Source: an uncultured Gammaproteobacteria bacterium (lineage in GTDB: Bacteria; Patescibacteriota; Patescibacteriia; Patescibacteriales; WJLG01). Taken from it: 29,596 nucleotides of DNA. The stretch covers positions 1 to 29,596 of the forward strand of contig CAZALZ010000013.1 of NCBI GenBank assembly GCA_964486475.1. Direction: 5' to 3'. Every line of letters starts with the position of its first letter. Position 1 is the first letter of the stretch. A program made the translations under genes and the position numbers. Below, piece after piece: positions 6,030-21,448 of this stretch. Under the pieces are notes generated by a model that saw nothing but the letters and a program-made list of their open reading frames with translations, was not told the DNA's origin and searched no databases.

Positions 6030-8402
6030 TTATTTTTTTCTCTTTTCAACCTTCAGCACATTCATCGTTGTATCAATCACGGTATCAGGGATTAGAGAAA
6101 TGGAATCGATTTTTTCTTTGACCAGAAATTCCACGAAATCCGGGAAGTCGGACGGAGCTTGTCCGCAAATGCCGACTTTAGTTTTGGTCTTCTTGGCGAT
6201 GCGGATCAGCTCTTTTATTAAAACCTTAACGGCATCATTTTTTTCATTGGAAATTCCAGCCACGCCGAGCATGCTGCCGGAATCGCGATCAATTCCAAGA
6301 GTAAGCTGAGTTAAATCATTGGAACCGATAGAAAAGCCGTCAAATTCTTCAGCGAATTGGTCGGCTAAAATTATATTTGCCGGAATTTCGGCCATGACGT
6401 AAATTTGCAAACCGTCTTTGCCGCGTATCAAGCCGCGTTTAGCCATAAGTGCTTTTACTTTTTGGCCTTCTTCTACCGTGCGGCAGAAGGGGATCATTAT
6501 TTTTAAATTTTTCAGCCCCATTTCTTGGCGGACTTTTTTCATGGCTTGGCATTCCAAATCAAAAGCCGGGATGAATTTTGGCGTGTAATAACGGTTTGCG
6601 CCGCGCCAGCCGATCATCGGATTGGATTCTTTCGGTTCGTATTGCGCGCCGCCGATTAGGTTGGCGTATTCGTTGGTTTTAAAATCCGACAGACGGATGA
6701 TGCAATCTTTAGGATAAACCGAAGCGGCGATCATGGCTACGCCTTCGGCCATTTTTTCCACGAAAAATTGTTTCTTGTCTTTGTGGCCGATTGTAATTTT
6801 ATCTATTTGCGCTTTAATCGTCGCCGGCTGTTTGGCGTAATTTATCAAGGCCAGCGGATGGATTTTGATATAGTTGTTGATGATAAATTCCAAACGCGCC
6901 AAACCGATGCCATCATTCGGGACAAAGGAAGTGGCAAGCGCCATATCCGGTTCGCCGACATTCATCATTATTTTTGTTTTAGGCCGTTTTAGATTTTTAA
7001 TGTTTGATTTGATTATTTTAAAAGGTAATATTCCTTTATAAACAAAACCGTTTTCTCCCTCGGCGCAAGAAACTGTTACGCTTTGCCCGCTGGAAAGCTT
7101 GGTAGAGGCGTTATTGGCTCCGACCACGCAAGGTATCCCGAGCTCGCGCGAAACGATCGCGGCATGGCAAGTCCGCCCGCCTTTATCAGTAATGATGGCT
7201 GAAGCTATTTTCATAATCGGCTCCCAATCCGGATCAGTCATGTCGGTTACTAAAACTTGTCCCGGCTTAAATGATTTTATTCCAGAAACTTCCATAATGC
7301 GGTTAACAATACCGGCGCCGACTTTATTACCGACCGACTGGCCGCTAACCAAAATTTCGCTGCGCTTGTTGATTTTGTATTTTTCCACGATATTGTAATC
7401 GCGCTGGCTTTGCACGGTTTCCGGTCTGGCTTGGATGATATAAAGTTTGCGGGTGCGGCCGTCCATAGCCCATTCCATATCCATTGGTTTATTGTAATGT
7501 TTTTCGATCTCTATTGCCCAATCTGCCAATTTTAAAGCTTCGGCATCGGTGATGGATTGTTTAATGCGTTCTTCCGCCGGAACGGAAATATTTTTAACAG
7601 GGTTGTCGCGGCTGTTATTATATATCATTCTTAGATCTTTTTTCCCGATTTTTTTAGAAATAATGGCGCGCGTCGGCTTGAAGACTAAAAATTCATCAGG
7701 ATTAACTCGTCCTTGCACGATATTTTCACCCAAACCGTAGATGGAGTGGACTAAAACCGTATTTTTAAAGCCGGACTCGGTGTCAATGGAAAACATTACC
7801 CCGGAACAGCCCGTATCCGCGCGGACCATAGTTTGCACGCCGACCGATAAAGCTATTTTAAAATGATCAAAACCTTTGTCGGCGCGATAGGAAATGGCGC
7901 GGTTGGTGAAAAGAGATGCAATGCATTCCTTGACCGCCTCCAAGAGCTGGCGCTCGCCGCGGATATTTAAAAAAGTTTCCTGCTGGCCGGCGAACGAAGC
8001 GTCCGGCAAATCTTCGGCCGTAGCCGAGGAGCGGACAGCTACATCCAAAACGCTGCGTTTTTCTGATTTGCAAAGTTTTTTGTAAGAAGAAACAATCTCT
8101 TTTTTTAATCCTTCCGGCAACTCCGCTTTTAAAATGGCGGCGCGGACTTTTTTGCCGTGATCCATTAGATTGGTTACGTTTTTCGTGTTTAAAGTTTTTA
8201 GAATTTTTTTAATATCCGTTTTTAAGCCGGTTTCCTCCATAAAAAAATTATAAGCTTCGGCCGTGGTGGCGAAGCCGTTGGGAACAGCGATTTTTTTCTT
8301 GGCTAACAAAGAATACATTTCTCCCAGAGAGGCGTTTTTCCCTCCAACCTGCGGCACGTCTTTAATGCGAAGCTCGCTAAAAAATTTAATGAATTTAGAC
8401 AT
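6030..8402 (-). CDS. ppsA: phosphoenolpyruvate synthase (pyruvate, water dikinase)
   Basis: 790 aa. N-terminus VGGKNASLGEM, phosphohistidine swivel motif GGRTCHAAIVSRELGIPCVVG, C-terminal PEP-utilising TIM-barrel motifs (FSIGSNDLTQ). Confidence 0.93.
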   Translation of the reverse strand: MSKFIKFFSELRIKDVPQVGGKNASLGEMYSLLAKKKIAVPNGFATTAEAYNFFMEETGLKTDIKKILKTLNTKNVTNLMDHGKKVRAAILKAELPEGLKKEIVSSYKKLCKSEKRSVLDVAVRSSATAEDLPDASFAGQQETFLNIRGERQLLEAVKECIASLFTNRAISYRADKGFDHFKIALSVGVQTMVRADTGCSGVMFSIDTESGFKNTVLVHSIYGLGENIVQGRVNPDEFLVFKPTRAIISKKIGKKDLRMIYNNSRDNPVKNISVPAEERIKQSITDAEALKLADWAIEIEKHYNKPMDMEWAMDGRTRKLYIIQARPETVQSQRDYNIVEKYKINKRSEILVSGQSVGNKVGAGIVNRIMEVSGIKSFKPGQVLVTDMTDPDWEPIMKIASAIITDKGGRTCHAAIVSRELGIPCVVGANNASTKLSSGQSVTVSCAEGENGFVYKGILPFKIIKSNIKNLKRPKTKIMMNVGEPDMALATSFVPNDGIGLARLEFIINNYIKIHPLALINYAKQPATIKAQIDKITIGHKDKKQFFVEKMAEGVAMIAASVYPKDCIIRLSDFKTNEYANLIGGAQYEPKESNPMIGWRGANRYYTPKFIPAFDLECQAMKKVRQEMGLKNLKIMIPFCRTVEEGQKVKALMAKRGLIRGKDGLQIYVMAEIPANIILADQFAEEFDGFSIGSNDLTQLTLGIDRDSGSMLGVAGISNEKNDAVKVLIKELIRIAKKTKTKVGICGQAPSDFPDFVEFLVKEKIDSISLIPDTVIDTTMNVLKVEKRKK

Positions 8403-8475: not shown

Positions 8476-8796
8476 TTATATTTTTATTTTTTTGCTCCAA
8501 TCGTTAATATAGGGGACTTCCCAGTATTCGCCGGCCAAGACTTTTAATATTCCTATGACCGAAACGATCAAAACAGCCAATCCAATTATTTGTCCAAAAA
8601 AAGGGAACCAGGAAACAAGACTTATAATAAAAAGCACCAATCCTTGTTTGGCGTGGAATTGGCAGAATTTGGAATCTTTTTTTGTTAAAAGCGGAATCAG
8701 AAACAATATCCAAACATAAGAAAGAGCGGCGGAGTGTTTGTTGTTTTCCGCGTCTTTTTTTTCCATAGCAGATAAAACTTTTTTTTCTCTGGGCAT
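8476..8796 (-). CDS. small membrane protein, DUF4870-like
   Basis: MPREKK...AALSYVWILFLIPLL...FHAKQGLVLFIISLV... has two or three TM segments and the HAKQ motif typical of that family. Start moved to ATG 8796 because the track start (8880) overlaps tRNA-Leu. Confidence 0.6.
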   Translation of the reverse strand: MPREKKVLSAMEKKDAENNKHSAALSYVWILFLIPLLTKKDSKFCQFHAKQGLVLFIISLVSWFPFFGQIIGLAVLIVSVIGILKVLAGEYWEVPYINDWSKKIKI

Positions 8797-8811
8797 AGAA
8801 TTGATTTTTAG

Positions 8812-8840
8812 TTGATTATTTGTTATCTTTATATTACTAT
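8812..8840 (+). promoter_or_regulatory. candidate promoter for tRNA-Leu (TTGATT-17 nt-TACTAT)
   Basis: The -35 is at 8812-8817 and the -10 at 8835-8840, 10 nt before the tRNA 5' end. Confidence 0.4.
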
Positions 8841-8850
8841 AGCATAAATT

Positions 8851-8932
8851 GCGGACGTGGTGAAATTGGTATACACGCATGCCTTAGGAGCATGTGGGGC
8901 AACCCATGAGAGTTCAAGTCTCTCCGTCCGCA
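8851..8932 (+). tRNA. tRNA-Leu (anticodon UAG), long variable arm
   Basis: Acceptor GCGGACG/CGTCCGC. D arm GTG..CAC. Anticodon stem CATGC/GCATG with loop CTTAGGA gives TAG. Variable arm TGGGGCAACCCATGA. T arm GAGAG-TTCAAGT-CTCTC. Discriminator A; only CC follows, so the CCA is not fully encoded. Confidence 0.9.
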
Positions 8933-8989
8933 CCGTTCCTGAATATAATTTTGTACTATAACAATTTAACTTTTTAGGAGGGATAGATA

Positions 8990-9846: not shown

Positions 9847-11061
9847 ATGTCCAAAGTAATTATTGACAAAGAACTAATTGAAAAATTTTTAACTCGTGGA
9901 GTTGAAGCCGTCTACCCGACAACCGACGAATTAAGGGAAAAATTAATGTCCGGCGAACGTTTACGCGTCTACCAGGGTTTTGATCCGACCGGAAAATATC
10001 TACATGTCGGGCACGCCATGGGAATCCGCGCCTTGCGCATTCTCCAGCAACTCGGACACGAAGTGATATTTTTGGTCGGAGATTACACGGCGCGCATCGG
10101 CGACCCGGACAAAGATACCGGCCGCGAAATGTTGACCGAAAAAGAGATCAAAGAAAATCTGGCCGGCTGGAAAGAACAAGCCGCCCAGATGATTGATTTC
10201 GAAGGCGACAATCCGGTGCGTTTTGCTTTCAATAACGAATGGCTGTCAAAACTGAATTTAAACGACTTGATAAAACTAATGTCCAAAATGACCGTCCAGC
10301 AGATGCTGGAGCGCGATATGTTTGAGCGCCGGATGAAAAACGGCGACCCGATCGGTTTGCACGAATTTATTTATCCTTTAATGCAAGGCTACGACGGCGT
10401 GGCCATGGAAGTGGATTTGGAAATCGGCGGCGCTGACCAGACTTTCAATATGCTCAAGGGTCGCGAAATCGTTAAATCGTATTTGAATAAAGAAAAATTC
10501 GTCCGCGCCAATAAAATGATGGATGCCCCGGACGGCCGCACCATGTCCAAAACCAAAGGCAACGGCATTAATCTGGGCGATTCTTCCGAAGATATGTACG
10601 GGAAAGCCATGTCTTACGGCGACGATAAAATTCTCATGGGACTGGAATTGATCACTGATGTTCCCATGGACGCCATCGCCGAGATAAAAAAAGATTTGGC
10701 TAACGGTGCCAACCCGATGCAATACAAGAAAATGCTGGCTTTTGAAATAGTCAAATGCATCCGCGGCGACGAAGAAGCGGCCCGCGCGCAAAAGCATTTT
10801 GAAGACACGGTGCAGAACAAAGAATTGCCGGCGGAAATCGCCGAACTGAAAATGAAAGCCGGAAATTATCATTTGGTTGATGTTATGGTTGAAGCCGGAT
10901 TAGCCGCCTCTAAAAGCGAGGCCGGACGTTTAATTGATCAAGGCGGAGTTAAGGTTGATAATAAAAAAGCAACCGACAAGGAATGCGAAGTGGCGGTTTC
11001 CGATAAGGAGGTTCTTATCCAAAAAGGCAAGAGAGGATTTGTAAAAATCGTGAAGAAATAA
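9847..11061 (+). CDS. tyrS: tyrosine--tRNA ligase
   Basis: YQGFDPTGKYLHVGHAMG (HIGH-type motif), KMSKTKGN (KMSKS), C-terminal S4-like domain (SKSEAGRLIDQGGVKVDN). Confidence 0.92.
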   Translation: MSKVIIDKELIEKFLTRGVEAVYPTTDELREKLMSGERLRVYQGFDPTGKYLHVGHAMGIRALRILQQLGHEVIFLVGDYTARIGDPDKDTGREMLTEKEIKENLAGWKEQAAQMIDFEGDNPVRFAFNNEWLSKLNLNDLIKLMSKMTVQQMLERDMFERRMKNGDPIGLHEFIYPLMQGYDGVAMEVDLEIGGADQTFNMLKGREIVKSYLNKEKFVRANKMMDAPDGRTMSKTKGNGINLGDSSEDMYGKAMSYGDDKILMGLELITDVPMDAIAEIKKDLANGANPMQYKKMLAFEIVKCIRGDEEAARAQKHFEDTVQNKELPAEIAELKMKAGNYHLVDVMVEAGLAASKSEAGRLIDQGGVKVDNKKATDKECEVAVSDKEVLIQKGKRGFVKIVKK

Positions 11062-11086
11062 AAATATTCAAAAAATACTTCAGTTT

Positions 11087-11131
11087 AAAACCGTGAATAA
11101 ATAGCCATTTTTTTGGTTCGTTCACGGTTTT
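11087..11131 (+). terminator. probable terminator after tyrS
   Basis: AAAACCGTGAA ... TTCACGGTTTT has 11-bp arms but a long 23-nt loop. The T tract is part of the stem end. Confidence 0.45.
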
Positions 11132-11169
11132 ATTGATAAAAAAAGAGTACGATAAAATCAGCAAAAACC

Positions 11170-11198
11170 TTGACATTGTATTACCATTGTAATACATT
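11170..11198 (+). promoter_or_regulatory. TA-operon promoter with overlapping palindromic operator
   Basis: TTGACA at 11170-11175, a 17-nt spacer, TACATT at 11193-11198. A perfect inverted repeat TGTATTAC-catt-GTAATACA (11177-11196) fills the spacer and the -10. Confidence 0.55.
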
Positions 11199-11227
11199 TA
11201 TTATATAACAAATTAAATTAAAAGAAT

Positions 11228-11455
11228 ATGCGCCAGGTATTAAGTTTGTCTTTGCCGGAACAAATAACCAAAGAAATCAAAGCTAATTCCAAAAAAAGAG
11301 GTTTTAGTTCTGTTTCCGGCTATGTGAAGTATCTTTTTGAGCTTGATAAGGATTTGATTTCTGAAAAAGAACTGTTAAATTCCGTCAATGAAGCCAGAGA
11401 AGAATACAAAAGCGGCAAAACCGTTAAAGCTAAATCAATAGCCGATCTTTTATGA
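11228..11455 (+). CDS. type II antitoxin, ribbon-helix-helix/RelB-like (75 aa)
   Basis: Small ORF whose stop overlaps the toxin start by 4 nt (ATGA). The N-terminal beta-strand-like segment VLSLSLPEQITKEIK is typical of RHH antitoxins. Confidence 0.7.
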   Translation: MRQVLSLSLPEQITKEIKANSKKRGFSSVSGYVKYLFELDKDLISEKELLNSVNEAREEYKSGKTVKAKSIADLL

Positions 11456-11724
11456 TAGTAAAGGAAATTCATTATTCCAAAAAATTCGTAAAAGAAATAA
11501 AAAAACTTCCTAAAGAAGTTTTTATTTTGGCCGTAAATAAAGAAGAAATATTTAAAAATAACCCTCTTCACCCTTCTTTGCGTTTGCATGAATTGCACGG
11601 GAAATTTAAAGGAATCTGGTCCATTTCTTTGACGAATAATTATAGAATAATATTCGAACGAATGCCGAATGGCGATATATTATTCATCTCTGTCGGCAAG
11701 CACGATATTTATAAGTATTTATAA
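11452..11724 (+). CDS. type II toxin, RelE/ParE superfamily (90 aa)
   Basis: LHELHGKFKGIWSISLTNNYRIIFERMPNGDILFISVGKHDIY matches the RelE/ParE core pattern (L-G-x-W-S-x-R/L...YRIIY...I-x-I...H-x-x-Y). Confidence 0.75.
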   Translation: MIVKEIHYSKKFVKEIKKLPKEVFILAVNKEEIFKNNPLHPSLRLHELHGKFKGIWSISLTNNYRIIFERMPNGDILFISVGKHDIYKYL

Positions 11725-12156
11725 TTATTGCACAACTGATTTCAAGATAAAGTGGACGATGGAATAAGAGGCGAAGATGACCACCAGTCCGACAACCGCC
11801 CAAGCCAGAATATTGCGGCCTTTTTCGACTTTGCTGTCATTGCCGGCGGCTAGCATCCAAGTGAAGCCGCCGTAGATAAACATAATTAAGGCTAAGGAGC
11901 CGACAATACCCAGAAGGGCGTCAATGATTTTTCCGATTAAGGTCGGGACGTCGGTGACGCCGGCGTTTTCTAAAGGGTTTTTCAAGCTGACGGTGTCGCT
12001 TGAGCCGGAATTAGTAGTATTATCTCCTGATCCGCTTATTGTCGTTCCGTTGCTTCCTGAACCGCTTATAGTTTCAGCCAGTGTTTTATTCACAGAAAAA
12101 AAGCCCACTGACATTAAAATACATATAAAACATATAAAAGCAAATTGTTTGGCCAT
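11725..12156 (-). CDS. secreted T4SS-pilin-like (TrbC/VirB2-like) protein common in CPR genomes
   Basis: Signal peptide MAKQFAFICFICILMSVGFFSVNKTLA and a Ser/Gly/Thr-rich linker. Then NPL...VPTLIGKIIDALLGIVGSLALIMFIYGGFTWMLAAGNDSKVEKGRNILAWAVVGLVVIFASYSIV, two TM helices in the VirB2-like layout. Start set at ATG 12156 (the track start is a TTG). Confidence 0.7.
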   Translation of the reverse strand: MAKQFAFICFICILMSVGFFSVNKTLAETISGSGSNGTTISGSGDNTTNSGSSDTVSLKNPLENAGVTDVPTLIGKIIDALLGIVGSLALIMFIYGGFTWMLAAGNDSKVEKGRNILAWAVVGLVVIFASYSIVHFILKSVVQ

Positions 12157-12203
12157 AAATAAATTAAGATTAATTCTTATAATATTATTATAATATAATA
12201 AAT

Positions 12204-12234
12204 AAAAAAGGGAAAGAAACAAAGTTCCTTTCCC
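12204..12234 (-). terminator. rho-independent terminator ending the SPFH operon
   Basis: On the minus strand: GGGAAAG-gaactttgttt-CTTTCCC followed by TTTTTTATTTATT, about 20 nt after the stop at 12254. Confidence 0.75.
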
Positions 12235-12253
12235 CGAGTAAAGACAGCGAGTG

Positions 12254-12934
12254 TCAGAGATATTTTACATCTACTAATATGCTGTCCAAGCGGTCTTCTA
12301 ACGCGACCAGCTTGAATTTAACTTGTCGCGACGGCTTGTTGCCGTAGGTTGACTGGTCCCAGGCTTTTATGGTATCACCTGAGCTGTAGACGACCAGCAA
12401 TTTTTCTGACACACAGCGGCTTGTGTTTATGTCGTAATTATATTTCCTTCCTTGTTTGAAGTATAACCATTCACTCTCTCTGTGAGGAGAAAGCGAAATA
12501 AAATATTTTCCTTCTTCGAACCCTTTTTCTGGTATAGAAACTTTTTTTACCGCTCCCCCCCCCAAATCTTCTTTTACAGTCGAAAGGGAAAAATTAGGAA
12601 AAAAGATTTTAACGACAATCATTATTGCCGCCATAGCGATAATGATCCCGTCAAGTCTCGCCACCGTTTCCAGCATTATCTTTCCCTTGTAAATCCCAAA
12701 GAAAGCTAACGAAAGGGAACAGCCAAGAATAACCAAGAAAAAACCGTTTTTCAGCACATTGAACCCGACAAGTTGGGATAGAGTCCAAGTTCCTGCGACA
12801 ATCATAATTAAAGTTAAAATTATCGCCAACAACCAATTTCCTTCTTGAAGGACGGAGCGGACTCTTTCTCCATCCCTTTCCATTGGTTGTTCAACTGCTG
12901 TTTCTCCGAAAATTCTGCGATCGCGTATTGCCAT
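12254..12934 (-). CDS. membrane protein (226 aa): three N-terminal TM helices plus an uncharacterised C-terminal soluble domain; SPFH operon partner
   Basis: SD GGAGA 7 nt upstream. TM segments WLLAIILTLIMIVAGTW, FFLVILGCSLSLAFFGIY, GIIIAMAAIMIVVKIFF. The C-terminal roughly 95 aa look beta-rich, with no recognised motif. Contains a G9 tract. Confidence 0.75.
   Translation of the reverse strand: MAIRDRRIFGETAVEQPMERDGERVRSVLQEGNWLLAIILTLIMIVAGTWTLSQLVGFNVLKNGFFLVILGCSLSLAFFGIYKGKIMLETVARLDGIIIAMAAIMIVVKIFFPNFSLSTVKEDLGGGAVKKVSIPEKGFEEGKYFISLSPHRESEWLYFKQGRKYNYDINTSRCVSEKLLVVYSSGDTIKAWDQSTYGNKPSRQVKFKLVALEDRLDSILVDVKYL
12555..12563 (-). repeat. G9 homopolymer (C9 on the plus strand) inside the 226-aa gene
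   Basis: The coding strand reads GAT TTG GGG GGG GGA GCG GTA AAA AAA (DLGGGAVKK). This is the longest G/C run I found in the window, in an AT-rich genome. Confidence 0.9.
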
Positions 12935-12979
12935 AGATATTCTCCTTTTTTGTGGCAGTTAACCGCGATCGAGATCGCG

Positions 12980-14230
12980 TCACTTGCCGGTTGTTGGTTG
13001 TTTTGATTGTTCGCGGTTGCGATAATCTCCTTGGTCTCGCCGATGATATCCGTGACGAAAACCAGTTCCTTGAGCCGCTCCATTGAAAGCATGGTTTGAT
13101 CCGCCTTCGCCCACAATATGGTCGATGTTTGGATTTCCCCATTTTTCCATTTCTTCCAGATGACGTATCGCTCGTTCTCCCTTTATTCCTTTGATATCAA
13201 GCATCGAAACGAGTTCGGCAATTCCCATTGCTTTTTCTTCAATAGCGATTCTTTCGGCCTTTGCCAGCCGTTCATTAGCCGCTCCTTGCCCCTCAGCTCT
13301 TTTTGCGATCGCATTTGCTTCGTGTGCCGCCGCTTCCGATTTTTTGGAAGCTTCCAGAACACTGTTTAAAGCATTCCGTTGGCTTTCCGTAAGAACGAAA
13401 TCGTAAACCTTTACAGTCTGGACTTTAATTCCCAACTTCAGAAGCTCCTCATTTTCAGGGGAAGTGATGAATTGCTCTGATAAATCATTCCCCTTTTTTT
13501 TCATAGCTTCTTCCATTTCTTCCGGAATGACCGCGCGGACAAAAGATTCTAAATAGCGAATCGTCGCTTTTATAGAATCTTCTTGACAGTAGACGGCCCG
13601 ATAGAGACTGTTGACTTTAAAGAATACATCGGCATAAATTGGCACTGAAGCATTTTTAAAGTCAATCAGCACTACTTGTTCAACACCGGCATTGTCTATG
13701 TAGCGGAAAAGATTTTTTCGGCGTTGACCCATAAATCCGAGAACTGTGGTTACCCAACCGAAATACGGAAAGAAGAAATACCATCCGCCCTCGGTTGCAG
13801 TGTAGGTGTAATTACCGAAAAGTTCCACAAGACGATTGTGGTTTTCCGACAGAGGAGTAAACCCCAACCAGAGAGCGTGAAAAACCAACCCGATAAAAAT
13901 AACAACAGCTAAGATTCCCACTGGAAATTTTTCCAACGCTTCAATGTTAGTAAATCCAACCGCCCACTTCAAGAGAAGCGCCGTCATAATTGATATAATA
14001 GCATCAACTCCGAATGAAATCATCCAAAGGTTTTTCGGGAAAAACCTTGGACCTCCCAGATTTTCTTTTTCTCCGTTTCCTTTTTTGGCCATAGCCATAG
14101 AAAGTAATGTTTTTTCTATTTTCATTACTTCTTCGTTTTTGCTTTTGTTTTTTTTCCGACTTGCGAAAAATTTCCCCAAAGAAAAGACAAAAAGAATGGA
14201 AACAACCACAATCGCCACTAACTTTTCCAT
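12980..14230 (-). CDS. SPFH/band-7 (stomatin/prohibitin/flotillin-like) domain membrane protein
   Basis: Three N-terminal TM helices, then an SPFH core (NRLVELFGNYTYTATEGGWYFFFPYFG ... LGIKVQTVKVYDFVLTE). Next comes the characteristic Ala/Glu-rich helix (SEAAAHEANAIAKRAEGQGAANERLAKAERIAIEEKA). Start set at ATG 14230 (SD AAGGAG 5-6 nt upstream); the track start at 14257 is a TTG. Confidence 0.8.
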   Translation of the reverse strand: MEKLVAIVVVSILFVFSLGKFFASRKKNKSKNEEVMKIEKTLLSMAMAKKGNGEKENLGGPRFFPKNLWMISFGVDAIISIMTALLLKWAVGFTNIEALEKFPVGILAVVIFIGLVFHALWLGFTPLSENHNRLVELFGNYTYTATEGGWYFFFPYFGWVTTVLGFMGQRRKNLFRYIDNAGVEQVVLIDFKNASVPIYADVFFKVNSLYRAVYCQEDSIKATIRYLESFVRAVIPEEMEEAMKKKGNDLSEQFITSPENEELLKLGIKVQTVKVYDFVLTESQRNALNSVLEASKKSEAAAHEANAIAKRAEGQGAANERLAKAERIAIEEKAMGIAELVSMLDIKGIKGERAIRHLEEMEKWGNPNIDHIVGEGGSNHAFNGAAQGTGFRHGYHRRDQGDYRNREQSKQPTTGK

Positions 14231-14308
14231 AACAACTCCTTTGTTTTTAATTTTCAAGGTTCTTTTAGTTTCTAAAACGTTAATTTTAGTAGTGTTTTAG
14301 ATATATAA

Positions 14309-14337
14309 ATAATATCATATTTTATAAAAAAAGTCAA
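14309..14337 (-). promoter_or_regulatory. candidate promoter of the SPFH operon (TTGACT-17 nt-TATTAT on the minus strand)
   Basis: The minus strand reads TTGACT (14337-14332), a 17-nt spacer, then TATTAT (14314-14309), about 80 nt upstream of the ATG at 14230. Confidence 0.5.
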
Positions 14338-14387
14338 TATTTATATAGTTATAAAGTTGCTATTTCAGCAGTTGCTAAAGTTAAAAA

Positions 14388-14429
14388 AGAAAAAATAAAA
14401 AGGGCCGGAAAACTTTCATTTTCAGGCCC
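14388..14429 (-). terminator. rho-independent terminator after the 230-aa gene
   Basis: Minus strand: GGGCCTGAAAA-tgaaag-TTTTCCGGCCC (one mismatch) followed by TTTTTATTTTTT. Confidence 0.7.
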
Positions 14430-14438
14430 TTGAGAAGC

Positions 14439-15131
14439 TCACGCAGCTGCTTCTTCTAAAACGACGGCCACTTGAGCCGTGTTTCCCGCCGCTTCAATCC
14501 TTTTTCCCAGCGCAAAGGTCTCTTGGGAAGTTTTTCGCGCATTTTCTCCGTGCGATATTCTTTCCGCCCCAATTTCCAGGAGCCTATTTTTGGCATCCCT
14601 TTTTGCTTCTTCAAGGGATACCATGGCGTTGATTATCACTTTCGCAGTTTTTGAAGCCTCTTGCAGGACATTTCCTGCAGCTCTGATTTGCGGAACGACA
14701 TCAACGAGCCTCTCTTCTTTTAGCCTCTCACTCTCGAAGATTTCAATCAACCTCTCGGAAATTCTCGCGGAAAAAGAGAGATCATCAATTTTTTTTACTT
14801 CTTCGGCATTTAGAGAGGAAACAGCTTCCATTGCTTCTTTAATCTCCCTAATCTCCCTTGCTCTCATTTTGAGGGTTCTTTGTCTCTCGACAATTTCCCT
14901 CGCAATGTTTTTTTGCTCTTCTTCTTTTCGCCTCACTTCTTTTTCTCTTTGATAAATATTTTTAATGCCCGGCAATACGGAACGGAGAAAAAAAACAATT
15001 CCTCCGCTGACAGCAACACTCGCCGCCATGAACAGTCCATACTTGCCACTGAACTCCATTGCCACAACAAAAAGTATGGCTAAAATCACTACTATACCGG
15101 CAATCTTCCCACTCATCTTTAAAAAATTCAT
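14439..15131 (-). CDS. membrane-anchored coiled-coil protein (230 aa), uncharacterised
   Basis: Two N-terminal TM helices (IAGIVVILAILFVVAM, LFMAASVAVSGGIVFFL), then about 170 aa of E/R/K/A-rich heptad-like sequence. No recognised family. Confidence 0.7.
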   Translation of the reverse strand: MNFLKMSGKIAGIVVILAILFVVAMEFSGKYGLFMAASVAVSGGIVFFLRSVLPGIKNIYQREKEVRRKEEEQKNIAREIVERQRTLKMRAREIREIKEAMEAVSSLNAEEVKKIDDLSFSARISERLIEIFESERLKEERLVDVVPQIRAAGNVLQEASKTAKVIINAMVSLEEAKRDAKNRLLEIGAERISHGENARKTSQETFALGKRIEAAGNTAQVAVVLEEAAA

Positions 15132-15302
15132 AAAAACCCCTTTCTGTAAGGTTTTTTTGTTTATTGAATTGTTAAAGAGCGGGAAGAAAATTTTAGGCCT
15201 CGCGGCCGATTCTTTCTAGAATCACAATATCTTATCATAAAAGATATTTTTTGTCAACAAAAGTTAAAGTTATATTAAAAAACGTTTTTTTTGTTAAAAT
15301 AT

Positions 15303-15329
15303 TTAGCACTCTTGACAATAGAGTGCTAA
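15303..15329 (+). promoter_or_regulatory. CIRCE operator (HrcA binding site), perfect match to consensus
   Basis: TTAGCACTC-TTGACAATA-GAGTGCTAA equals the consensus TTAGCACTC-N9-GAGTGCTAA. It ends 18 nt before the hrcA ATG. Confidence 0.92.
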
Positions 15330-15347
15330 TTGAGATATTATGGTGTT

Positions 15348-16055
15348 ATGGATAGAAAACATCAAATACTTGAAGCTATTATTAAAGAACACATCGCATC
15401 CGGCACGCCGGTCGGGTCTTCTGTTTTGGTGGAAAAATGCGGCCTGGATTGCTCACCGGCAACCGTGCGCAATATTATGGTTGAATTGGAAGAAGAAGGG
15501 TTAATCATGCAACCGCACACATCAGCCGGACGCGTGCCGACCGAAGCCGCTTATAACCTATTTATAGAAGAACTGAAAAACGGCCAGCGTAAATTGAAAA
15601 AAGCGCGCGAAAAAGAGCTGAAAGAATTGGATGATAGTTTTTCCGGAGAGGATGAAACAGCCATGCGCGAAACAGCCAAGGCTTTGGCGGCTCTGACCAA
15701 TTCCGCGGTTTTCTGGGCTTTTCATAAAAATAATTTGTATTATACCGGTTTGTCCAATCTTTTTTCCCAGCCGGAATTTATAAATTCCGGTTTGGTCTAT
15801 AATGTTTCAGCGGTGATCGATCGGATGGACGAAATTATTGATTCTATTTTTGAAAAAGTCTCGAGTTCGCCAGGGGGCGGAGCGCAAGTTTTTGTCGGCG
15901 AAGAAAATCCGTTCGGCAATTTCTGCGGTTCTGTTATTGCCAAGTATCGCCTCGGAAATCAAACCGGACTGTTCGGGATTCTCGGACCGATTAGAATGGA
16001 CTATGAGAGGAACTTGGGGCTGGTGGAATATATACTTAATAAGTTGAGGAAATAA
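15348..16055 (+). CDS. hrcA: heat-inducible transcription repressor HrcA, short form (235 aa)
   Basis: N-terminal wHTH (ILEAIIKEHIASGTPVGSSVLVEKCGLDCSPATVRNIMVELEEEGLIMQPHTSAGRVPT) and C-terminal GILGPIRMDYERNLGLVEYI. Start set at ATG 15348 (the track start at 15330 is a TTG abutting CIRCE). Confidence 0.88.
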   Translation: MDRKHQILEAIIKEHIASGTPVGSSVLVEKCGLDCSPATVRNIMVELEEEGLIMQPHTSAGRVPTEAAYNLFIEELKNGQRKLKKAREKELKELDDSFSGEDETAMRETAKALAALTNSAVFWAFHKNNLYYTGLSNLFSQPEFINSGLVYNVSAVIDRMDEIIDSIFEKVSSSPGGGAQVFVGEENPFGNFCGSVIAKYRLGNQTGLFGILGPIRMDYERNLGLVEYILNKLRK

Positions 16056-16079
16056 TTTTTATTATAATAACTGAAAAAA

Positions 16080-16150
16080 GAAAAATGAAATGTGAAAAAT
16101 GAGTAAAGATAAAATTTTTATCATTTTTCATGTTTCTTGTTTCATATTTC
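16080..16150 (+). other. long AT-rich imperfect hairpin between hrcA and grpE
   Basis: The inner arms TGAAAAATGA (16093-16102) and TCATTTTTCA (16121-16130) are perfect. The outer arms GAAAAATGAAA (16080-16090) and TTTCATATTTC (16140-16150) have one mismatch. It ends 7 nt before the grpE ATG. Confidence 0.6.
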
Positions 16151-16157
16151 AAAAGCT

Positions 16158-16628
16158 ATGTCCGAAGAAAAAAAAGTTAAAACAGAAGAAAAAACTGTTG
16201 ACGAGAAAATTCTCGAATTAGAGGCCGAACTGAAGGACGCTAACGATAAGTATATGCGCGCGTTGGCTGAACAGCAGAATCTGGTCAAACGCCAAGCGAG
16301 TGAGAAAGAAGAATTTATCAAATACGCCAACCAGGAAATCATTTTAGAATTCTTAAGCGTTTATGATCACTTGAGAATGTCAATAGATTTCTTGCCGGCC
16401 GAAGAAAAGGACAATGCTTGGGTTAAGGGAGTTGAAATGACGATCAAGCAATTTAAAGATTTATTAAATGTGAATGGCGTGGAAGAAATAAAAACCGTTG
16501 GCGAGAAATTCGACCCGAATACTATGGAAGCCACCGAAGGCACGGGGGAGAAGGTCGCGAAAGAAATTATGGCGGGGTATAAGCTGAATGGGAAAGTAAT
16601 TCGCGCCGCTCGAGTTTTGTTAGAATAA
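16158..16628 (+). CDS. grpE: nucleotide exchange factor GrpE
   Basis: Coiled-coil N-terminus (LELEAELKDANDKYMRALAEQQNLVKR), C-terminal beta domain (FDPNTMEA...GYKLNGKVIRAARV). Start at ATG 16158. Confidence 0.9.
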   Translation: MSEEKKVKTEEKTVDEKILELEAELKDANDKYMRALAEQQNLVKRQASEKEEFIKYANQEIILEFLSVYDHLRMSIDFLPAEEKDNAWVKGVEMTIKQFKDLLNVNGVEEIKTVGEKFDPNTMEATEGTGEKVAKEIMAGYKLNGKVIRAARVLLE

Positions 16629-16638
16629 ATAAATATTT

Positions 16639-16707
16639 GTAGCAGGTAGTATGTAGTATGCAGTATGGAATCTAGACCATACTACTTACTACATATTCCA
16701 TACTACC
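16639..16707. repeat. heptad-repeat hairpin element, copy E2 (grpE stop to hsp20 start)
   Basis: TAGCAGG TAGTATG TAGTATG CAGTATG G-aatctaga-C CATACTA CTTACTA CATATTC CATACTA CC. The outer arms GGTAGTATG (16645-53) and CATACTACC (16699-707) are a perfect 9 bp. The inner arms AGTATGG/CCATACT give 7 bp. Confidence 0.75.
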
Positions 16708-16715
16708 AAAATTAT

Positions 16716-17147
16716 ATGCCTAATTTAATTAAATGGAGTCCATTTTTCGACGGGTTCGAAGATATGGACAAAATGTTTTCCGAATTTGTGCCGGTTGTCA
16801 GACGCGGCGACGCTGGCGGGTTTGTTCCGGCTATCGACGTCTATGAAGACAAAGGCAATCTGATCGTGGAAACGCAATTGGCCGGAATCGATCCGGAAAA
16901 AGTTTCCATCGCCATTGAGAATGATGTTTTAACCATCAAGGGCGAGAGCGAAAAGAAAAGCGAAGTCGAGGATAAAGATTATTATAGAAAAGAAATTAGG
17001 CGCGGTTCGTTTTTCCGCACGATCCAGTTGCCGGCCCATGTTGATGGCGATAAAGCTTCGGCCATTTCCGAGTCAGGTATTTTGAAAATTTCTATCCCGA
17101 AGCGGGAAGAATCCCAACCAAAAACAATTAAAATTGAAAAAAAATAA
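16716..17147 (+). CDS. Hsp20/alpha-crystallin family small heat-shock protein
   Basis: Alpha-crystallin domain: PAIDVYEDKGNLIVETQLAGIDPEKVSIAIENDVLTIKGE...RGSFFRTIQLP...GILKISIPK. Start at ATG 16716; the track extension translates the hairpin. Confidence 0.9.
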   Translation: MPNLIKWSPFFDGFEDMDKMFSEFVPVVRRGDAGGFVPAIDVYEDKGNLIVETQLAGIDPEKVSIAIENDVLTIKGESEKKSEVEDKDYYRKEIRRGSFFRTIQLPAHVDGDKASAISESGILKISIPKREESQPKTIKIEKK

Positions 17148-17150
17148 TAT

Positions 17151-17220
17151 TAGCTGTTGGCAATATGTAGTATGTAATATGGAATTTAAACTATACACCA
17201 TACTGCATATCCCATGCTAC
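17151..17220. repeat. heptad-repeat hairpin element, copy E3 (hsp20 stop to dnaK start)
   Basis: TAGCTGTTGG CAATATG TAGTATG TAATATG G-aatttaaa-CTATACA C CATACTG CATATCC CATGCTA C. GTAGTATG (17167-74) pairs with CATACTGC (17199-206), and TAGC (17151-54) pairs with GCTA (17216-19). Confidence 0.7.
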
Positions 17221-17234
17221 AATTATAAAATTCT

Positions 17235-19154
17235 ATGAGTAAAATATTAGGAATCGACCTAGGAACAACTAACAGTGCCATGGCCATAATCGAAGGCGGA
17301 GCGCCTAAGATTCTGGAGAATGCCGAAGGAATGAGAACAACTCCTTCCATTGTCGCAATCTCTAAATCCGGCGAATGGCTGGTTGGCGCTGCGGCTAAAC
17401 GTCAGGCTGTCACCAATCCCGAGAACACCATCTTTGAGATGAAACGTTTGATCGGCCGTCACTTCAATGACGAAGAAGTTCAGCGCGATTTGAAGAATAT
17501 GCCTTACAAGATCGTGCAGGCCGGAGAAGGCGTGAAAATCATTGTTTCCGGAAAAGAATACACTCCGCAGGAAATTTCTGCCAAGGTTTTGGCGAAATTG
17601 AAAGCTGATGCTGAAGCTCGTTTGGGCGAAAAAATTACCGAAGCGATCATTACTGTTCCGGCTTATTTTGATGATTCTCAAAGACAAGCCACTAAGGATG
17701 CTGGTCAGATCGCCGGTTTGAATGTTAAGCGTATCATCAATGAGCCAACCTCAGCCGCTTTGGCTTACGGTTTGGACAAGAAGCACGGCCATCAAATCGT
17801 TGTCTACGATTTGGGCGGCGGAACTTTTGATGTTTCCATTCTTGATGTCGGCGGCGATAGCGTTATGGTTAAAGCAACTAATGGCGACACTCATTTAGGC
17901 GGCGCGGATTTTGACCAGCGCGTTATCAATTGGATTTTAGAAGAATTCCGCAAAGAGGAAGGCGTCGATCTTTCCAAAGATCCGTTGGCTTTGCAGAGAA
18001 TCAAGGAAGCGGCCGAGAAAGCCAAGATCGAATTGTCTTCTTCTATGGAGACAGAAATCAATCAGCCGTTCATAACTGTTGGTGCTGAAGGTCCGAAACA
18101 TTTAGTTAAAAAAATGACTCGCGCGAAATTGGAAGAGTTGGTCGGCGATTTGGTCGAGAAAACCATTGAGCCTTGCAAAAAGGCTTTGACCGATGCCGGT
18201 TTGAAAGTGGAGGATTTGGAAGAAGTTGTTTTGGTTGGCGGTATGACTCGTATGCCAATGGTGCAAAAATTGGTTAAAGACTTCTTTAAGAAAGAACCGA
18301 ATATGTCGGTTAATCCGGACGAAGTGGTTGCAGCTGGCGCCGCTGTTCAGGGCGGTGTCTTGCAGGGTGATGTTAAAGATATTTTGCTTTTGGATGTTAC
18401 TCCGTTGACTTTAGGTATTGAAACTTTGGGCGGCGTGGCCACTCCATTGATTGAACGCAATACCACTATCCCGACTCAAAAATCGCAAATATTTTCTACC
18501 GCAGCTGATTCTCAGACCAGCGTGGAAATCAAAGTCGTTCAAGGCGAACGCCCGATGGCGGCTGACAATAAAGTCCTGGGCAATTTTATGCTCGACGGAA
18601 TTCCGCCGGCTCCTCGCGGCGTTCCACAGGTTGAAGTTAAATTCGACATTGACGCTAACGGAATTCTGAATGTTTCCGCGATGGACAAAGCTTCCGGTAA
18701 AACTCAGAATATTACTATCACTGCTTCTTCCGGACTTTCCAAGGAAGAAGTGGAGAAGATGAAAAAAGAAGCTGAAGCGCACGCCGAGGAAGACAAGAAA
18801 AAGAAAGAAAAAATAGATTTGAAGAATCAGGCCGATGCCGCGGTTTTCCAAACCGAGAAATTGATCAAAGATATGGGCGCGAAAATGTCGCCAGAAGATG
18901 TCAAAACTTTGACCGACCATGTTGAAGATTTGAAAAAGATCAAAGACGGTGATGACATTGAAGCGATCAAAAAGAAATTGGAAGAAATGAACCAGGCTGC
19001 GCAGACCATCGGCGGGAAAATGTACCAATCCGCCCAGGGCGGACAAGCAGCCGGCGCTCAACCGGGAGCTGAACAAGCTGGCGCCGAACAACCAAAGTCC
19101 GAAGATAAAAAAGACGAAGGCCCAGTTGAAGGTGAATACGAGGAGAAAAAGTAA
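17235..19154 (+). CDS. dnaK: molecular chaperone DnaK (Hsp70)
   Basis: [29 protein letters not shown] and the other canonical Hsp70 signatures; 639 aa. Confidence 0.97.
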
Positions 19155-19165
19155 TTTTCTTATAG

Positions 19166-19197
19166 ACCAACTTTTATCTTTTGATAAAGGTTGGTTT
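19166..19197 (+). terminator. terminator after dnaK
   Basis: ACCAACTTTTATC-tttt-GATAAAGGTTGGT is a 13-bp stem with one mismatch/wobble, followed by a short TTT. Confidence 0.6.
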
Positions 19198-19212
19198 GCT
19201 AAGAAAGTTAAT

Positions 19213-19236
19213 AATTCCCCTCTCAAGAGGGGAATT
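19213..19236. repeat. palindromic repeat element copy B (intergenic, perfect 24-bp palindrome)
   Basis: AATTCCCCTCT-ca-AGAGGGGAATT, 5 nt before the ATG at 19242. Confidence 0.8.
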
Positions 19237-19241
19237 AATTT

Positions 19242-19880
19242 ATGCCTCTATCAGCCAGCCACATAAAATTCGCGCTTGATATGAAAGATTATTTCAAGCC
19301 GAAAAATTTGCAGGAATATTTTTCCGGCGCGGTTTATCCCGATAGCCGTTATTTCAGCGGGCTTGATAGAAAAAAGACTCATAATGAAAATTTTTGGCCG
19401 GAAGAATTTTGGCGCGGCGATGATTTTAAAAAGGGCTGGGCTTCGCACTGCATTTCCGATAGAGCATATACGATAGGAATGAAAAAAATTTTTCCTGCTT
19501 GGGTTGATTTGAATAATAATTTAGTAAAGATTGAAAATACCGCAGTAAAAATTCTTGGCGACATTTTTTCATTCGACGATCCGGAAATTAAAAAAATTAT
19601 TGATTTAATCGAAAATATTTCCGGCTTTAACAATGAAAGCCAAGAAGTAATGAAAGACCACTTGCAAACCATGAAATATTGCTATAAAAAGAGCGGTAAA
19701 GGGGAAATTTCCGATTATTCAAAGGCTATGCGGAAAACTTTGGGGGAGGAGATGGCTGAAAAGGTTATTTCTAAAGCGGAATTTTTTAATGAAGATAATG
19801 AGTTGTTAAAGGCGATAAAGAATTTTTTTCAAGAAGGAATTAAGATTGAGATTAAAAATATTTCGGCTAATTTAAATTAG
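19242..19880 (+). CDS. hypothetical protein (212 aa); weak resemblance to the zinc-dependent phospholipase C-like fold
   Basis: The spacing of His/Asp-containing segments (SASHIKFAL, GAVYPDSRY, KKTHNE, GWASHCISDR) resembles Zn-PLC-like families. The assignment is by eye only. Confidence 0.6.
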   Translation: MPLSASHIKFALDMKDYFKPKNLQEYFSGAVYPDSRYFSGLDRKKTHNENFWPEEFWRGDDFKKGWASHCISDRAYTIGMKKIFPAWVDLNNNLVKIENTAVKILGDIFSFDDPEIKKIIDLIENISGFNNESQEVMKDHLQTMKYCYKKSGKGEISDYSKAMRKTLGEEMAEKVISKAEFFNEDNELLKAIKNFFQEGIKIEIKNISANLN

Positions 19881-19887
19881 TATTTTT

Positions 19888-20637
19888 ATGAAAAAGCATA
19901 CTTTGCGTACAAGATTCAAAAAAGACATCGTCTGTGAATTTGTCGCGCCAAATAAAACATCTAATAAGGTGGCGATAGTTTGCGGTGGTATGCCAGGTTA
20001 TCCTGGTAGAAATAATGAATTGCTTTTTTGGCTGGCGCGTCGCGAGTATTGGGCCTTTTTGCCGAGATATCGCGGTACCTGGGAAAGCAACGGAAAATTT
20101 TTAGAAAAATCTCCGCAGCAAGACATTTTAGATATTATTAATGAGTTGCCGAAAGGTTTTAATAATTTATGGAATGGCGAAATTTTAAAAATAAAAAACC
20201 CGCAGATATATTTGTTCGGTTCCAGTTTTGGCGGACCGGCCGTTATTCTTAACTCCGGAGATCTGAGAATAAAAAAAGCAATAGTTTTTTCTCCGGTTGT
20301 TGATTGGCGCAAAGAAAGCAGGGTTGAACCGCTGGAGTGGATGGGGAAATTTGCCAAATCGGCTTTTGGCAACGGTTATCGTTTTGACAAAAAAGATTGG
20401 CGGAAGTTATCCAGTGGAAAATTTTACAATCCGGCAACGGCAACAGAAAAAATTAATCCGAAAAAAGTTTTGATTTTTCATGCCAAAGACGATAAAATTG
20501 TGGAGTTTAATCCGGTTAAAGAATTTGCCGAAAAAACGGGCTGCCGTTTCATTGCCTTAAATAAAGGCGGGCATATATCGTTTCGGAATATTATGAAGCC
20601 GGAATTTTGGAAAAAAATTAAAAAATTTATAAAATAA
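19888..20637 (+). CDS. alpha/beta-fold hydrolase (esterase/peptidase-like)
   Basis: Nucleophile elbow G-S-S-F-G-G (LFGSSFGGP), an acid candidate in HAKDDKIV, and a His in NKGGHISF, in the canonical order. Confidence 0.75.
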   Translation: MKKHTLRTRFKKDIVCEFVAPNKTSNKVAIVCGGMPGYPGRNNELLFWLARREYWAFLPRYRGTWESNGKFLEKSPQQDILDIINELPKGFNNLWNGEILKIKNPQIYLFGSSFGGPAVILNSGDLRIKKAIVFSPVVDWRKESRVEPLEWMGKFAKSAFGNGYRFDKKDWRKLSSGKFYNPATATEKINPKKVLIFHAKDDKIVEFNPVKEFAEKTGCRFIALNKGGHISFRNIMKPEFWKKIKKFIK

Positions 20638-20642
20638 AATTT

Positions 20643-21047
20643 ATGGAAAAATTAACAATGAAAACCGGTGAGGAAGTTGACAATTCGAAAATCGAAGAAA
20701 GAAAAATCGCAATTGATCCGGAAACATCAGAAATATTTAAAGAATTTCCAGTTAATAGCGATTTTGGCATAAACTGCTGGCAAGGTCCGCACTTTTTTAA
20801 TTTGGTCATTCCAAAGAATATTTTTAAAAAAATCGGGCCGGGCGATCCGCGCATAGAAGCTTTGTCAAAGACTTTCGGTGCCAAAGAAGATGCTGATGTT
20901 TACTCCGTTAAATTACCGCTTTCCGCCTCTGAGGGTAAGGTTTTAGAATCTCCGGAAGAGACAGAAGCGAGAATTCAAAAAATAATTGATGTTATAGAAA
21001 GAGCGTATAAGGATAGTTTAGCGGGTAATTTAAAAGAAATAAAATAA
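20643..21047 (+). CDS. hypothetical protein (134 aa)
   Basis: ORF 5 nt after the previous stop; no recognised motif. Confidence 0.6.
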   Translation: MEKLTMKTGEEVDNSKIEERKIAIDPETSEIFKEFPVNSDFGINCWQGPHFFNLVIPKNIFKKIGPGDPRIEALSKTFGAKEDADVYSVKLPLSASEGKVLESPEETEARIQKIIDVIERAYKDSLAGNLKEIK

Positions 21048-21082
21048 TAGTCGAAGAATGTTTTAATAAATAAAATATTAAT

Positions 21083-21370
21083 ATGGAAAACAATCAAAAC
21101 AAGCCGCCAGAAATTAAAATCGCGGATAATCTTCCAGGCGGCGAATACGCCAATGCCATGCAGGTAATTTTCAGCAAAGACGAATTTACCTTGCCGTTTT
21201 TTAATTTAGTCGGCAATACCGGCCGCGTGGTGGCGAAAATTATTTCCAATCCCGGCCATTACAACAGAATGGTTGCGGTTATGGAAAAATCTCTGAAGGA
21301 ATATGAAGGTAAATTCGGCGCGATTAAAGAGGCGGCGGAGTTGAATAAAGAGATTGGATTTAAAGCTTAA
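21083..21370 (+). CDS. DUF3467 domain protein (95 aa)
   Basis: The pattern GEYANAMQVIFSKDEFTLPFF...GRVVAKIISNPGHYNRMVAVMEKSLKEYEGKFGAIKE matches the DUF3467 signature as I recall it (Y-x-N...EF-x-LDF...P-x-HAK...YE-x-x-FG-x-I). Confidence 0.7.
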   Translation: MENNQNKPPEIKIADNLPGGEYANAMQVIFSKDEFTLPFFNLVGNTGRVVAKIISNPGHYNRMVAVMEKSLKEYEGKFGAIKEAAELNKEIGFKA

Positions 21371-21372
21371 TA

Positions 21373-21444: not shown

Positions 21445-21448
21445 AAAA

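Follow-up and report, generated by a model that had tools for sequence, protein, structure and literature searches.

A divergent SPFH protein, a non-NfeD partner and a VirB2-like pilin are encoded in a predicted three-gene module of Patescibacteria

The stretch of DNA analyzed here (29,596 nucleotides (nt), contig CAZALZ010000013.1 of GenBank assembly GCA_964486475.1) is deposited under the name of an uncultured Gammaproteobacteria bacterium and is placed by GTDB in the Patescibacteriota. The whole 29.6-kb stretch is referred to as the window, while L-numbers denote the loci of relatives and P-numbers their proteins. The window codes for a divergent SPFH/Band_7 protein and, directly downstream, for a small membrane protein, which we call the partner. 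In the initial annotation, these genes were described as a self-contained two-gene operon. In terms of transcription, two genes are indeed likely to belong together, and the terminator behind them is itself conserved. However, the pair is not self-contained with respect to its neighborhood, as the adjacent gene, which codes for a VirB2-like pilin, is also kept wherever downstream DNA is visible. As judged from gene order and sequence similarity, the conserved unit consists of three genes (SPFH, partner and pilin), and this module appears to be restricted to Patescibacteria-type contigs so far. We tentatively propose that the SPFH-partner complex serves the linked pilin as its client, and we give this proposal a chance that falls somewhat short of even.

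The SPFH gene is found directly 5' of the partner gene in seven distinct loci other than the window, so that the pair is conserved as neighbors, as the initial annotation required for its proposal to hold. An orthologous pilin gene (Pfam family PF18895) follows the partner gene in all eight further distinct loci with visible downstream DNA. The complete trio is present in L003/L004 (Band_7 protein of 362 amino acids (aa)), L006/L007 (398 aa), L012 (474 aa, Band_7 with E=1e-14), L013/L014 (342 aa) and L016 (527 aa), and also in L005, where the first gene encodes a 386-aa SPFH-like protein. In L008, partner and pilin are preceded by a truncated open reading frame (ORF) that is not assignable. 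A contig from the Joint Genome Institute (JGI; protein P0004) has a partner gene that is cut by the contig end and is followed by the pilin gene. In L001, a Band_7 protein with 35% identity to the window protein is followed by the first 36 partner codons (MKDRIVIGETLEQ... versus MAIRDRRIFGETAVEQ...). The gap between the SPFH and partner genes is 0-68 nt (eight loci with DNA). The gap between the partner and pilin genes is 89-116 nt, and it holds a terminator and a TATAAT-like box (8/8 loci with DNA).

At least three different genomic surroundings were found for the trio (TyrRS/hrcA, BrnT/BrnA and DEAD helicase/P-type ATPase). One and the same chromosomal site is occupied in the window, L012, L016 and L005; it is characterized by a convergent gene for tyrosyl-tRNA synthetase (TyrRS) downstream of the pilin gene. 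In the window and in L012, hrcA-grpE-dnaK are located upstream of the trio. In L003 and L008, the trio is followed by BrnT/BrnA, and in L013/L014 it lies between genes for a DEAD helicase and a P-type ATPase. Within the TyrRS group, sequence identities are 68-77% for TyrRS, 42-57% for the pilin, 25-40% for the partner and 23-35% for the SPFH protein; among the members of the trio, the pilin is conserved best. Because the SPFH and partner proteins have a far lower identity than the adjacent TyrRS, the pair has been subject either to very fast divergence or to cassette replacement.

Additional genes at the TyrRS site are variable. They code for a HigB/YafQ-like toxin-antitoxin (TA) pair in the window, for an SLT protein in L012 and for a fragment of an rve integrase in L016. 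The TA pair of the window (11228-11724, plus strand) consists of a 75-aa antitoxin-like ORF and a 90-aa HigB/YafQ-like toxin and lies between the genes for TyrRS and the pilin. It looks like an insertion, because TyrRS directly follows the pilin in L012, L016 and L005. BrnT/BrnA of L003 and L008 are a different TA pair, which is found in a place equivalent to that of the TA pair in the window.

The SPFH gene (12980-14230, minus strand, 416 aa) and the partner gene (12254-12934, minus strand, 226 aa) are predicted to form one transcription unit that extends from promoter to terminator. This is because a promoter-like site, a short gap with a strong Shine-Dalgarno sequence and a terminator are all in place. 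Their positions agree, exactly or to within a few bases, with those which the initial annotation had given for its membrane operon, as do those of nearly all other sequence features listed there. The same succession of promoter, SPFH gene, partner gene and terminator is repeated in seven other loci, which is more than chance would give. The promoter-like site (14309-14337, minus strand; TTGACT-17-TATTAT with a TG extension) is sigma-70-like, with 10/12 matches. Boxes resembling TTGAC(A/T)...TATAAT are also found 5' of the SPFH gene in L003, L005, L006, L012, L013 and L016. The ATG of the SPFH gene is preceded by AAAGGAG and that of the partner gene by AAAAGGAG; both genes have a strong Shine-Dalgarno sequence in all loci with DNA. 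The intrinsic terminator of the SPFH-partner transcript (12200-12235, minus strand) consists of a 12-bp GC-rich stem (12235-12209) and a T-run. It has a folding free energy (dG) of -18 kcal/mol and a z-score of -4.8, and none of 200 shuffled sequences was equally stable. A comparable GC hairpin with a T-run is found 3' of the partner gene in all seven other loci with DNA.

A hairpin had been reported for the gap between the SPFH and partner genes. The palindrome is present (CGCGATCTCGATCGCG, 12964-12979, minus strand), but the gap has 45 nt rather than 46, and the loop is TC rather than GA (CGCGATC-TC-GATCGCG, without a T-run after it). As RNA, it forms a 6-bp stem with a local z-score of -1.6, which is not significant alone. 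A hairpin without a clear T-run occurs in the three loci with a long SPFH-partner gap of 45-68 nt (window, 12964-12979; L001, 1525-1560; L005, 1598-1640). No hairpin is found in the gaps of 0-26 nt in the remaining loci. Possible roles of the hairpin are in the processing or stability of the mRNA, or in partial attenuation, by which the ratio of SPFH protein to partner would be set. The 5' untranslated region of the SPFH gene has no notable structure. No Rfam family was detected across 11000-15500, and no compositional or GC anomaly was seen at the locus. The sequence GCGATCGC, which resembles the HIP1 repeat, is present in two copies versus 0.8 expected, which is not a significant enrichment.

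The pilin gene (11725-12156, minus strand, 143 aa) seems to have its own promoter. A putative -10 box (TATAAT, 12187-12192, minus strand) was read from the sequence 31 nt 5' of the pilin ATG. A TATAAT-like box directly follows the T-run of the terminator in 8/8 loci (window, L003, L005, L006, L008, L012, L013 and L016), and the pilin gene is devoid of a Shine-Dalgarno sequence in the partner-pilin gap of each of them (12157-12199 in the window). This suggests that the pilin promoter uses the terminator tail as an upstream element and that the transcript has a short AT-rich leader.

By sequence similarity, the product of the first gene is assigned as a divergent stomatin/QmcA-like SPFH protein, which agrees with its initial annotation as an SPFH/band-7 protein. 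It matches Pfam PF01145 (Band_7) over residues 129-307 with 25.4 bits, above the gathering threshold (GA) of 23.6, and it matches PH stomatin from Pyrococcus (3bk6) with E=6e-4 (phmmer). A family profile built from four members aligns to Escherichia coli QmcA with a probability of 98.5% (hhalign, E=1.5e-15, 205 columns), and this alignment extends over the SPFH domain into the first part of the helical region. The ortholog from L012 matches Band_7 with 55 bits (E=1e-14), and the Band_7 annotation is also present for the SPFH proteins of L003, L006, L013, L016 and P0003. The SPFH-like protein of L005 is below the Band_7 threshold; in the multiple alignment, it can nevertheless be aligned with the rest of the family, with only 15% identity to the window protein. 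When genomes and metagenomes were scanned with the SPFH profile, only L003 and L001 were recovered again, together with one fragment (L011).

Hydropathy analysis of the window SPFH protein places hydrophobic segments at residues 4-22, 68-90 and 104-122. They are followed by the SPFH domain (about 129-307), a helical region and a C-terminal tail that is basic and of low complexity. Three N-terminal transmembrane (TM) helices and a basic tail had been described before, and both are found again. Relatives have one to four hydrophobic segments, and mostly the last two are retained, as a hairpin. As judged from charge counts, a K/R-rich loop precedes this TM hairpin in the SPFH proteins. For this reason, we predict that the SPFH domain is cytoplasmic.

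The partner belongs to a small family with a common layout: a charged N-terminal tail, three hydrophobic segments (35-53, 64-82 and 94-112 in the window protein, from hydropathy) and a conserved C-terminal domain (C-domain) of about 100 aa. The consensus of this C-domain is Y-x-x-G-x-Y-x-I-S-L...G-E-E-S-x-W-I...V-V-Y-S-x-G...W...F-K-L. The N-terminal tail carries a short, semi-conserved motif (R-I-x-I-G-E-T and variants). No family is assigned to the partner in Pfam, NCBIfam, PADLOC or PHROGs. Word-indexed searches with the single proteins gave hardly any matches; for the partner, only the protein itself was returned from 5.8 billion proteins. A phmmer search of 1.84 billion cluster representatives gave nine matches; seven of these have 188-244 aa, and six of the seven clearly have the same architecture. 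Two further members were found by a profile search, and a scan of metagenomes with the partner profile gave no match. The family has about 11 members and about a dozen loci. The initial proposal of a divergent or new SPFH partner family is therefore supported: the family lies outside Pfam and NCBIfam, and the pair is kept as neighbors.

The partner had been likened in architecture to NfeD, with TM helices and a beta-rich C-terminal domain of roughly 95 aa, even though an NfeD motif was not seen by eye. The three TM helices and a small beta-rich C-domain are indeed present, with seven strands over the last 100 aa or so in the AlphaFold2 (AF2) model. The likeness ends at the predicted fold and at the predicted membrane side. 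Modeling of the whole partner is weak, with a mean predicted local distance difference test score (pLDDT) of 62. When the C-domain is modeled alone (10 sequences), a pLDDT of 72.6 and a predicted template-modeling score (pTM) of 0.65 are obtained, and the fold is predicted to be a seven-stranded sandwich (jelly-roll/GOLD/cupin-like) rather than a five-stranded oligonucleotide/oligosaccharide-binding (OB) barrel. NfeD (PF01957) matches none of eight family members at E<=1, and hhalign gives a probability of 0.1% against E. coli YbbJ, both for the full-length profile and for that of the C-domain. On these grounds (no PF01957 match, 0.1% against YbbJ, and a sandwich in the model), identity with NfeD was rejected. 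The partner shares one feature with NfeD proteins (a multi-TM protein co-transcribed with an SPFH gene) and lacks the two features that can be computed, a sequence match and, in the model, an OB fold, which supports that it is not NfeD.

Charge counts throughout the family indicate that the N-terminal tail and the second loop are K/R-rich. Because this implies an N-in/C-out topology, the C-domain is predicted to be outside the cell, opposite to the cytoplasmic SPFH domain, and not cytoplasmic as in NfeD proteins. P0014 has an additional N-terminal TM helix, which is compatible with a C-out orientation. A possible relationship to galectins (C-domain profile against congerin II, E=2e-4) was rejected as generic likeness of sandwich strands, as the match breaks up into two weak segments (i-E 17 and 0.35) that overlap and come from the same profile region.

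The window pilin is a clear match to PF18895 ("T4SS_pilin"; E=4e-13, 49.6 bits versus a GA of 26.6), and it is just below the threshold for TrbC (PF04956; 25.8 versus 27.9). It has a signal peptide, a linker rich in S, G and T, an NPL motif and two TM helices. Between the two helices lies a basic cytoplasmic loop of the VirB2 type, as judged from hydropathy and charge counts, and this holds for 8/8 pilin orthologs. The pilins at the same position in seven other loci are 40-53% identical to the window protein in the multiple alignment, and 42-57% identical in local pairwise alignments. L003 codes for a second PF18895 protein (6577-7044, minus strand), 3 kb from the trio, which is 25% identical to the linked pilin (multiple alignment). 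Because identity across loci (42-57%) is much higher than identity to this other copy (25%), the linked pilin is predicted to represent a distinct orthologous group of PF18895. The low identity of the second copy in L003 also indicates that these genomes probably carry several diverged PF18895 genes. In L012, and in that locus only, a gene for an SLT lytic transglycosylase (2936-3511; VirB1-like function) is located directly 5' of the SPFH gene.

A wide distribution of VirB2-like pilins among Patescibacteria has been reported, in many cases as arrays and in many cases close to virB4 (PMC12102498). In one cultured Saccharibacterium, VirB2-like pilins encoded in a type IV secretion system (T4SS) cluster are essential (PMC10633639). 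The terms SPFH, Band 7, stomatin and flotillin are absent from both papers, and a literature search found no report that ties SPFH proteins to Patescibacteria or to VirB2-like pilins.

Starting from sequence homologies, the order of the genes, signals for transcription and the class of the fold, we infer a topology, an oligomeric state, physical contacts and a client relationship that would fit together as follows. The SPFH protein would be anchored by its TM hairpin (with an extra N-terminal TM helix in the window copy), with the SPFH and helical regions facing the cytoplasm. If HflK/C, flotillin and stomatin are taken as a guide, it may oligomerize, and the resulting cage would fence off a patch of the membrane. 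The partner would sit in the fenced patch with its three TM helices, its charged N-terminal tail would point into the cage, and its jelly-roll sandwich would be exposed on the outer face. The R-I-x-I-G-E-T motif is a candidate docking strand. The linked pilin, expressed from its own putative promoter directly after the operon terminator, would be the client, its membrane pool being collected, stabilized or handed over by the SPFH-partner complex. The ectodomain of the partner may be in touch with the pilin, at its exposed N-terminal portion, or else with the cell wall. Precedents exist for parts of this scheme. The FloA-NfeD complex has been proposed to stabilize client membrane proteins (PMC11222466), and in Agrobacterium, components of the T4SS co-fractionate with SPFH proteins in detergent-resistant membranes (PMC8656257).

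Several observations weigh against a client relationship. As four loci share the TyrRS site, part of the conservation of the neighborhood is synteny by descent, and the TyrRS adjacency shows that synteny can persist without function. The pilin gene is transcribed separately, judging by the terminator in front of it and by its own -10-like box. In L015 (a 1.7-kb contig), the weak homolog P0010, which is the weakest family member, has neither an SPFH nor a pilin gene alongside; it is flanked by a resolvase gene and a TPR-like ORF and is the sole exception to the gene order. T4SS core genes (VirB4 and others) were not found in Pfam scans of 20 larger window ORFs (ORFs in 26495-29562 being outside the scan), nor in the flanks of L003, L012 and L013. 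In Agrobacterium, T4SS function is independent of the SPFH proteins (PMC8656257). Finally, the sandwich model for the C-domain is of medium confidence (pLDDT 73, 10 sequences).

Some of these points would be explained if the SPFH protein and the partner form a generic membrane-quality-control pair with a lineage-specific accessory subunit, which acts on many membrane proteins in the manner of QmcA-YbbJ or FloA-NfeD and has the pilin gene as a neighbor merely by inherited synteny. The pilin gene is preceded by a strong terminator and seems to have a promoter of its own, which fits this explanation, and so does the TyrRS adjacency, which is kept in the same four loci without an obvious functional link. 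SPFH-partner pairs are generally tied to membrane protein homeostasis, and in the window and in L012 the locus is placed beside the stress cluster hrcA-grpE-hsp20-dnaK-dnaJ. However, the only CIRCE operator (controlling inverted repeat of chaperone expression) in the window is found at hrcA and not at the SPFH promoter. Moreover, a generic pair does not account for a trio that persists in at least three unrelated contexts and despite SPFH and partner identities down to 23-40%, nor for a terminator-plus-promoter junction of 89-116 nt that is kept in 8/8 loci. We consider a generic pair unlikely, although it has to be taken seriously. The contrast between TyrRS (68-77%) and the SPFH and partner proteins (23-35% and 25-40%; window, L012, L016 and L005) could also be attributed to a fast-evolving accessory cassette at a variable site. 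Instead of being a housekeeping scaffold, such a cassette might have a surface, host-interaction or defense role and might be exchanged or diversified among related episymbionts. The TA pair, the SLT gene and the rve fragment at the TyrRS site, BrnT/BrnA after the trio in L003 and L008, the resolvase gene beside P0010 and the predicted exposure of the partner ectodomain all point in this direction. This is countered by the lack of a GC anomaly, by the lack of homologs in plasmid, phage or viral collections and by PADLOC, which reports only a weak match of SPFH type (PDC-S72, E=4e-4). We regard an accessory cassette as quite improbable; it describes an evolutionary mode more than a mechanism and is compatible with the client model.

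A defense or phage origin was rejected, given that PADLOC has only the weak PDC-S72 match and that PHROGs is blank for partner and pilin. Tblastn searches gave no plasmid match for partner or pilin and no phage match for the partner, and a scan of IMG/VR with the pilin profile gave no match. An alternative view of the partner is that it is an NfeD protein that has diverged beyond recognition. The locus would then be a classical SPFH-NfeD operon, in which the C-domain is cytoplasmic and docks on the SPFH coiled coil. TM helices with a small beta-rich C-domain, encoded immediately after a QmcA-like SPFH gene as in qmcA-ybbJ, would be expected in this case, the genomes evolve fast, and the confidence of the C-domain model is only medium. 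Considering the blank PF01957 search, the result against YbbJ and the predicted sandwich, a hidden NfeD is highly unlikely.

The proposal that the SPFH-partner complex serves the linked pilin can be taken one step further. It is tempting to speculate that some Patescibacteria have hard-wired an SPFH cage and an ectodomain adaptor as a depot or assembly platform for one VirB2-like pilin away from a linked T4SS, and that this system evolves unusually fast at the host-facing envelope. This extended version is speculative, and we think it improbable as a whole. If it were true, an SPFH-adaptor-client trio would be defined in genetic terms by this locus, and its adaptor would be one other than NfeD.

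SPFH proteins are present across all domains of life, and their clients and the logic of their partners are mostly unclear. To our knowledge, NfeD is essentially the only recognized prokaryotic family of SPFH partners. The locus described here would add a second partner family, unrelated to NfeD, with a different predicted fold and probably on the opposite side of the membrane. It also provides a candidate SPFH client, which was picked out by its gene neighborhood. The roles of VirB2-like pilins in the epibiotic lifestyle of Patescibacteria are an open question (PMC12102498, PMC10633639), and for one subgroup of the "orphan" pilins of this type the locus would be the first contextual clue. Compared with the initial annotation, the main additions are the conserved link to a specific VirB2-like pilin and what looks like an unusually fast divergence of the SPFH-partner pair. 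The main limit is rarity, with about a dozen loci among billions of proteins, and everything functional is deduced.

The other genes in the vicinity agree with the flanks given in the initial annotation, which were a TA pair and a pilin gene on one side and, on the other, a gene for a coiled-coil membrane protein that is divergent from hrcA. The latter gene (14439-15131, minus strand) is located upstream of the SPFH operon and has its own terminator (z-score -2.8). Its 230-aa product contains a long coiled coil in addition to two TM segments at its N-terminus, and all its family matches are sub-threshold. It was rejected as a fourth conserved gene, because its counterpart by position in L012, a protein of 292 aa, is unrelated. 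A perfect CIRCE operator (TTAGCACTC-N9-GAGTGCTAA, 15303-15329) overlaps the TTGACA promoter of hrcA and heads the hrcA-grpE-hsp20-dnaK...dnaJ cluster (15330-22525). This is the one copy in the window, versus 0.01 expected by chance. As it is found at hrcA only, control of the SPFH operon by HrcA was rejected. Further away, a gene for tRNA-Leu(TAG) (8851-8934, plus strand) overlaps the 5' end of a 134-aa ORF without family assignment (8476-8880, minus strand). This ORF may have been given a wrong start, or it may not be a genuine gene.

Among known systems, QmcA-YbbJ from E. coli and Atu3772-Atu3773 from Agrobacterium, in which a short NfeD gene follows a stomatin-type SPFH gene, are similar in that the SPFH gene is the first of the operon and the second encodes a small protein with several TM helices and a beta-rich C-domain. 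The predicted cytoplasmic location of the SPFH domain is a further similarity. The gene order had initially been considered as reversed, NfeD being expected upstream. This has to be corrected, because the SPFH protein is QmcA/stomatin-like, and SPFH-first is the ordinary arrangement for QmcA-type pairs (qmcA then ybbJ; atu3772 then atu3773, PMC8656257), while NfeD-first holds for flotillin-type operons. In contrast to YbbJ, the window partner has no NfeD sequence signal, is a seven-stranded sandwich in the model and is predicted to be extracytoplasmic. There are two further differences from QmcA-type pairs. The SPFH anchor has two or three TM helices here rather than one, and a pilin-like gene adjoins wherever downstream DNA is visible.

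In the FloA-NfeD and FloT-YuaF operons of Firmicutes, the NfeD gene comes first, and the cytosolic OB-like domain of its product binds the flotillin coiled coil (PMC11222466). These systems also combine an SPFH scaffold with a dedicated membrane partner and have been proposed to confine and stabilize client membrane proteins (PMC11222466), a working model that is adopted here, whereas gene order, partner fold and predicted membrane side differ from those found here. With respect to the VirB2-like pilins of Patescibacteria (PF18895/PF04956; PMC12102498, PMC10633639), the third gene codes for a clear PF18895 member with VirB2-like topology. In contrast to the pilin arrays, the window pilin is a single, comparatively conserved ortholog, and virB4 is not among the window ORFs scanned.

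TraQ of the F plasmid is a small inner-membrane chaperone (about 94 aa, one TM helix) which is needed for accumulation of the TraA pilin. There is no sequence or architectural similarity to TraQ, and the TraQ-TraA system has no SPFH protein. It is similar in concept, as a dedicated membrane protein that is encoded near a VirB2-family pilin manages the membrane pool of that pilin. The HflK/C cage encloses the TM part of FtsH, whose other domain lies across the membrane (cf. PMC13220708). HflK/C, unlike the SPFH protein predicted here, face the periplasm, and their client is an AAA protease, while no protease gene is present in the window locus. Nevertheless, HflK/C-FtsH is the nearest precedent for a cage and a client or partner domain on opposite faces of the membrane.

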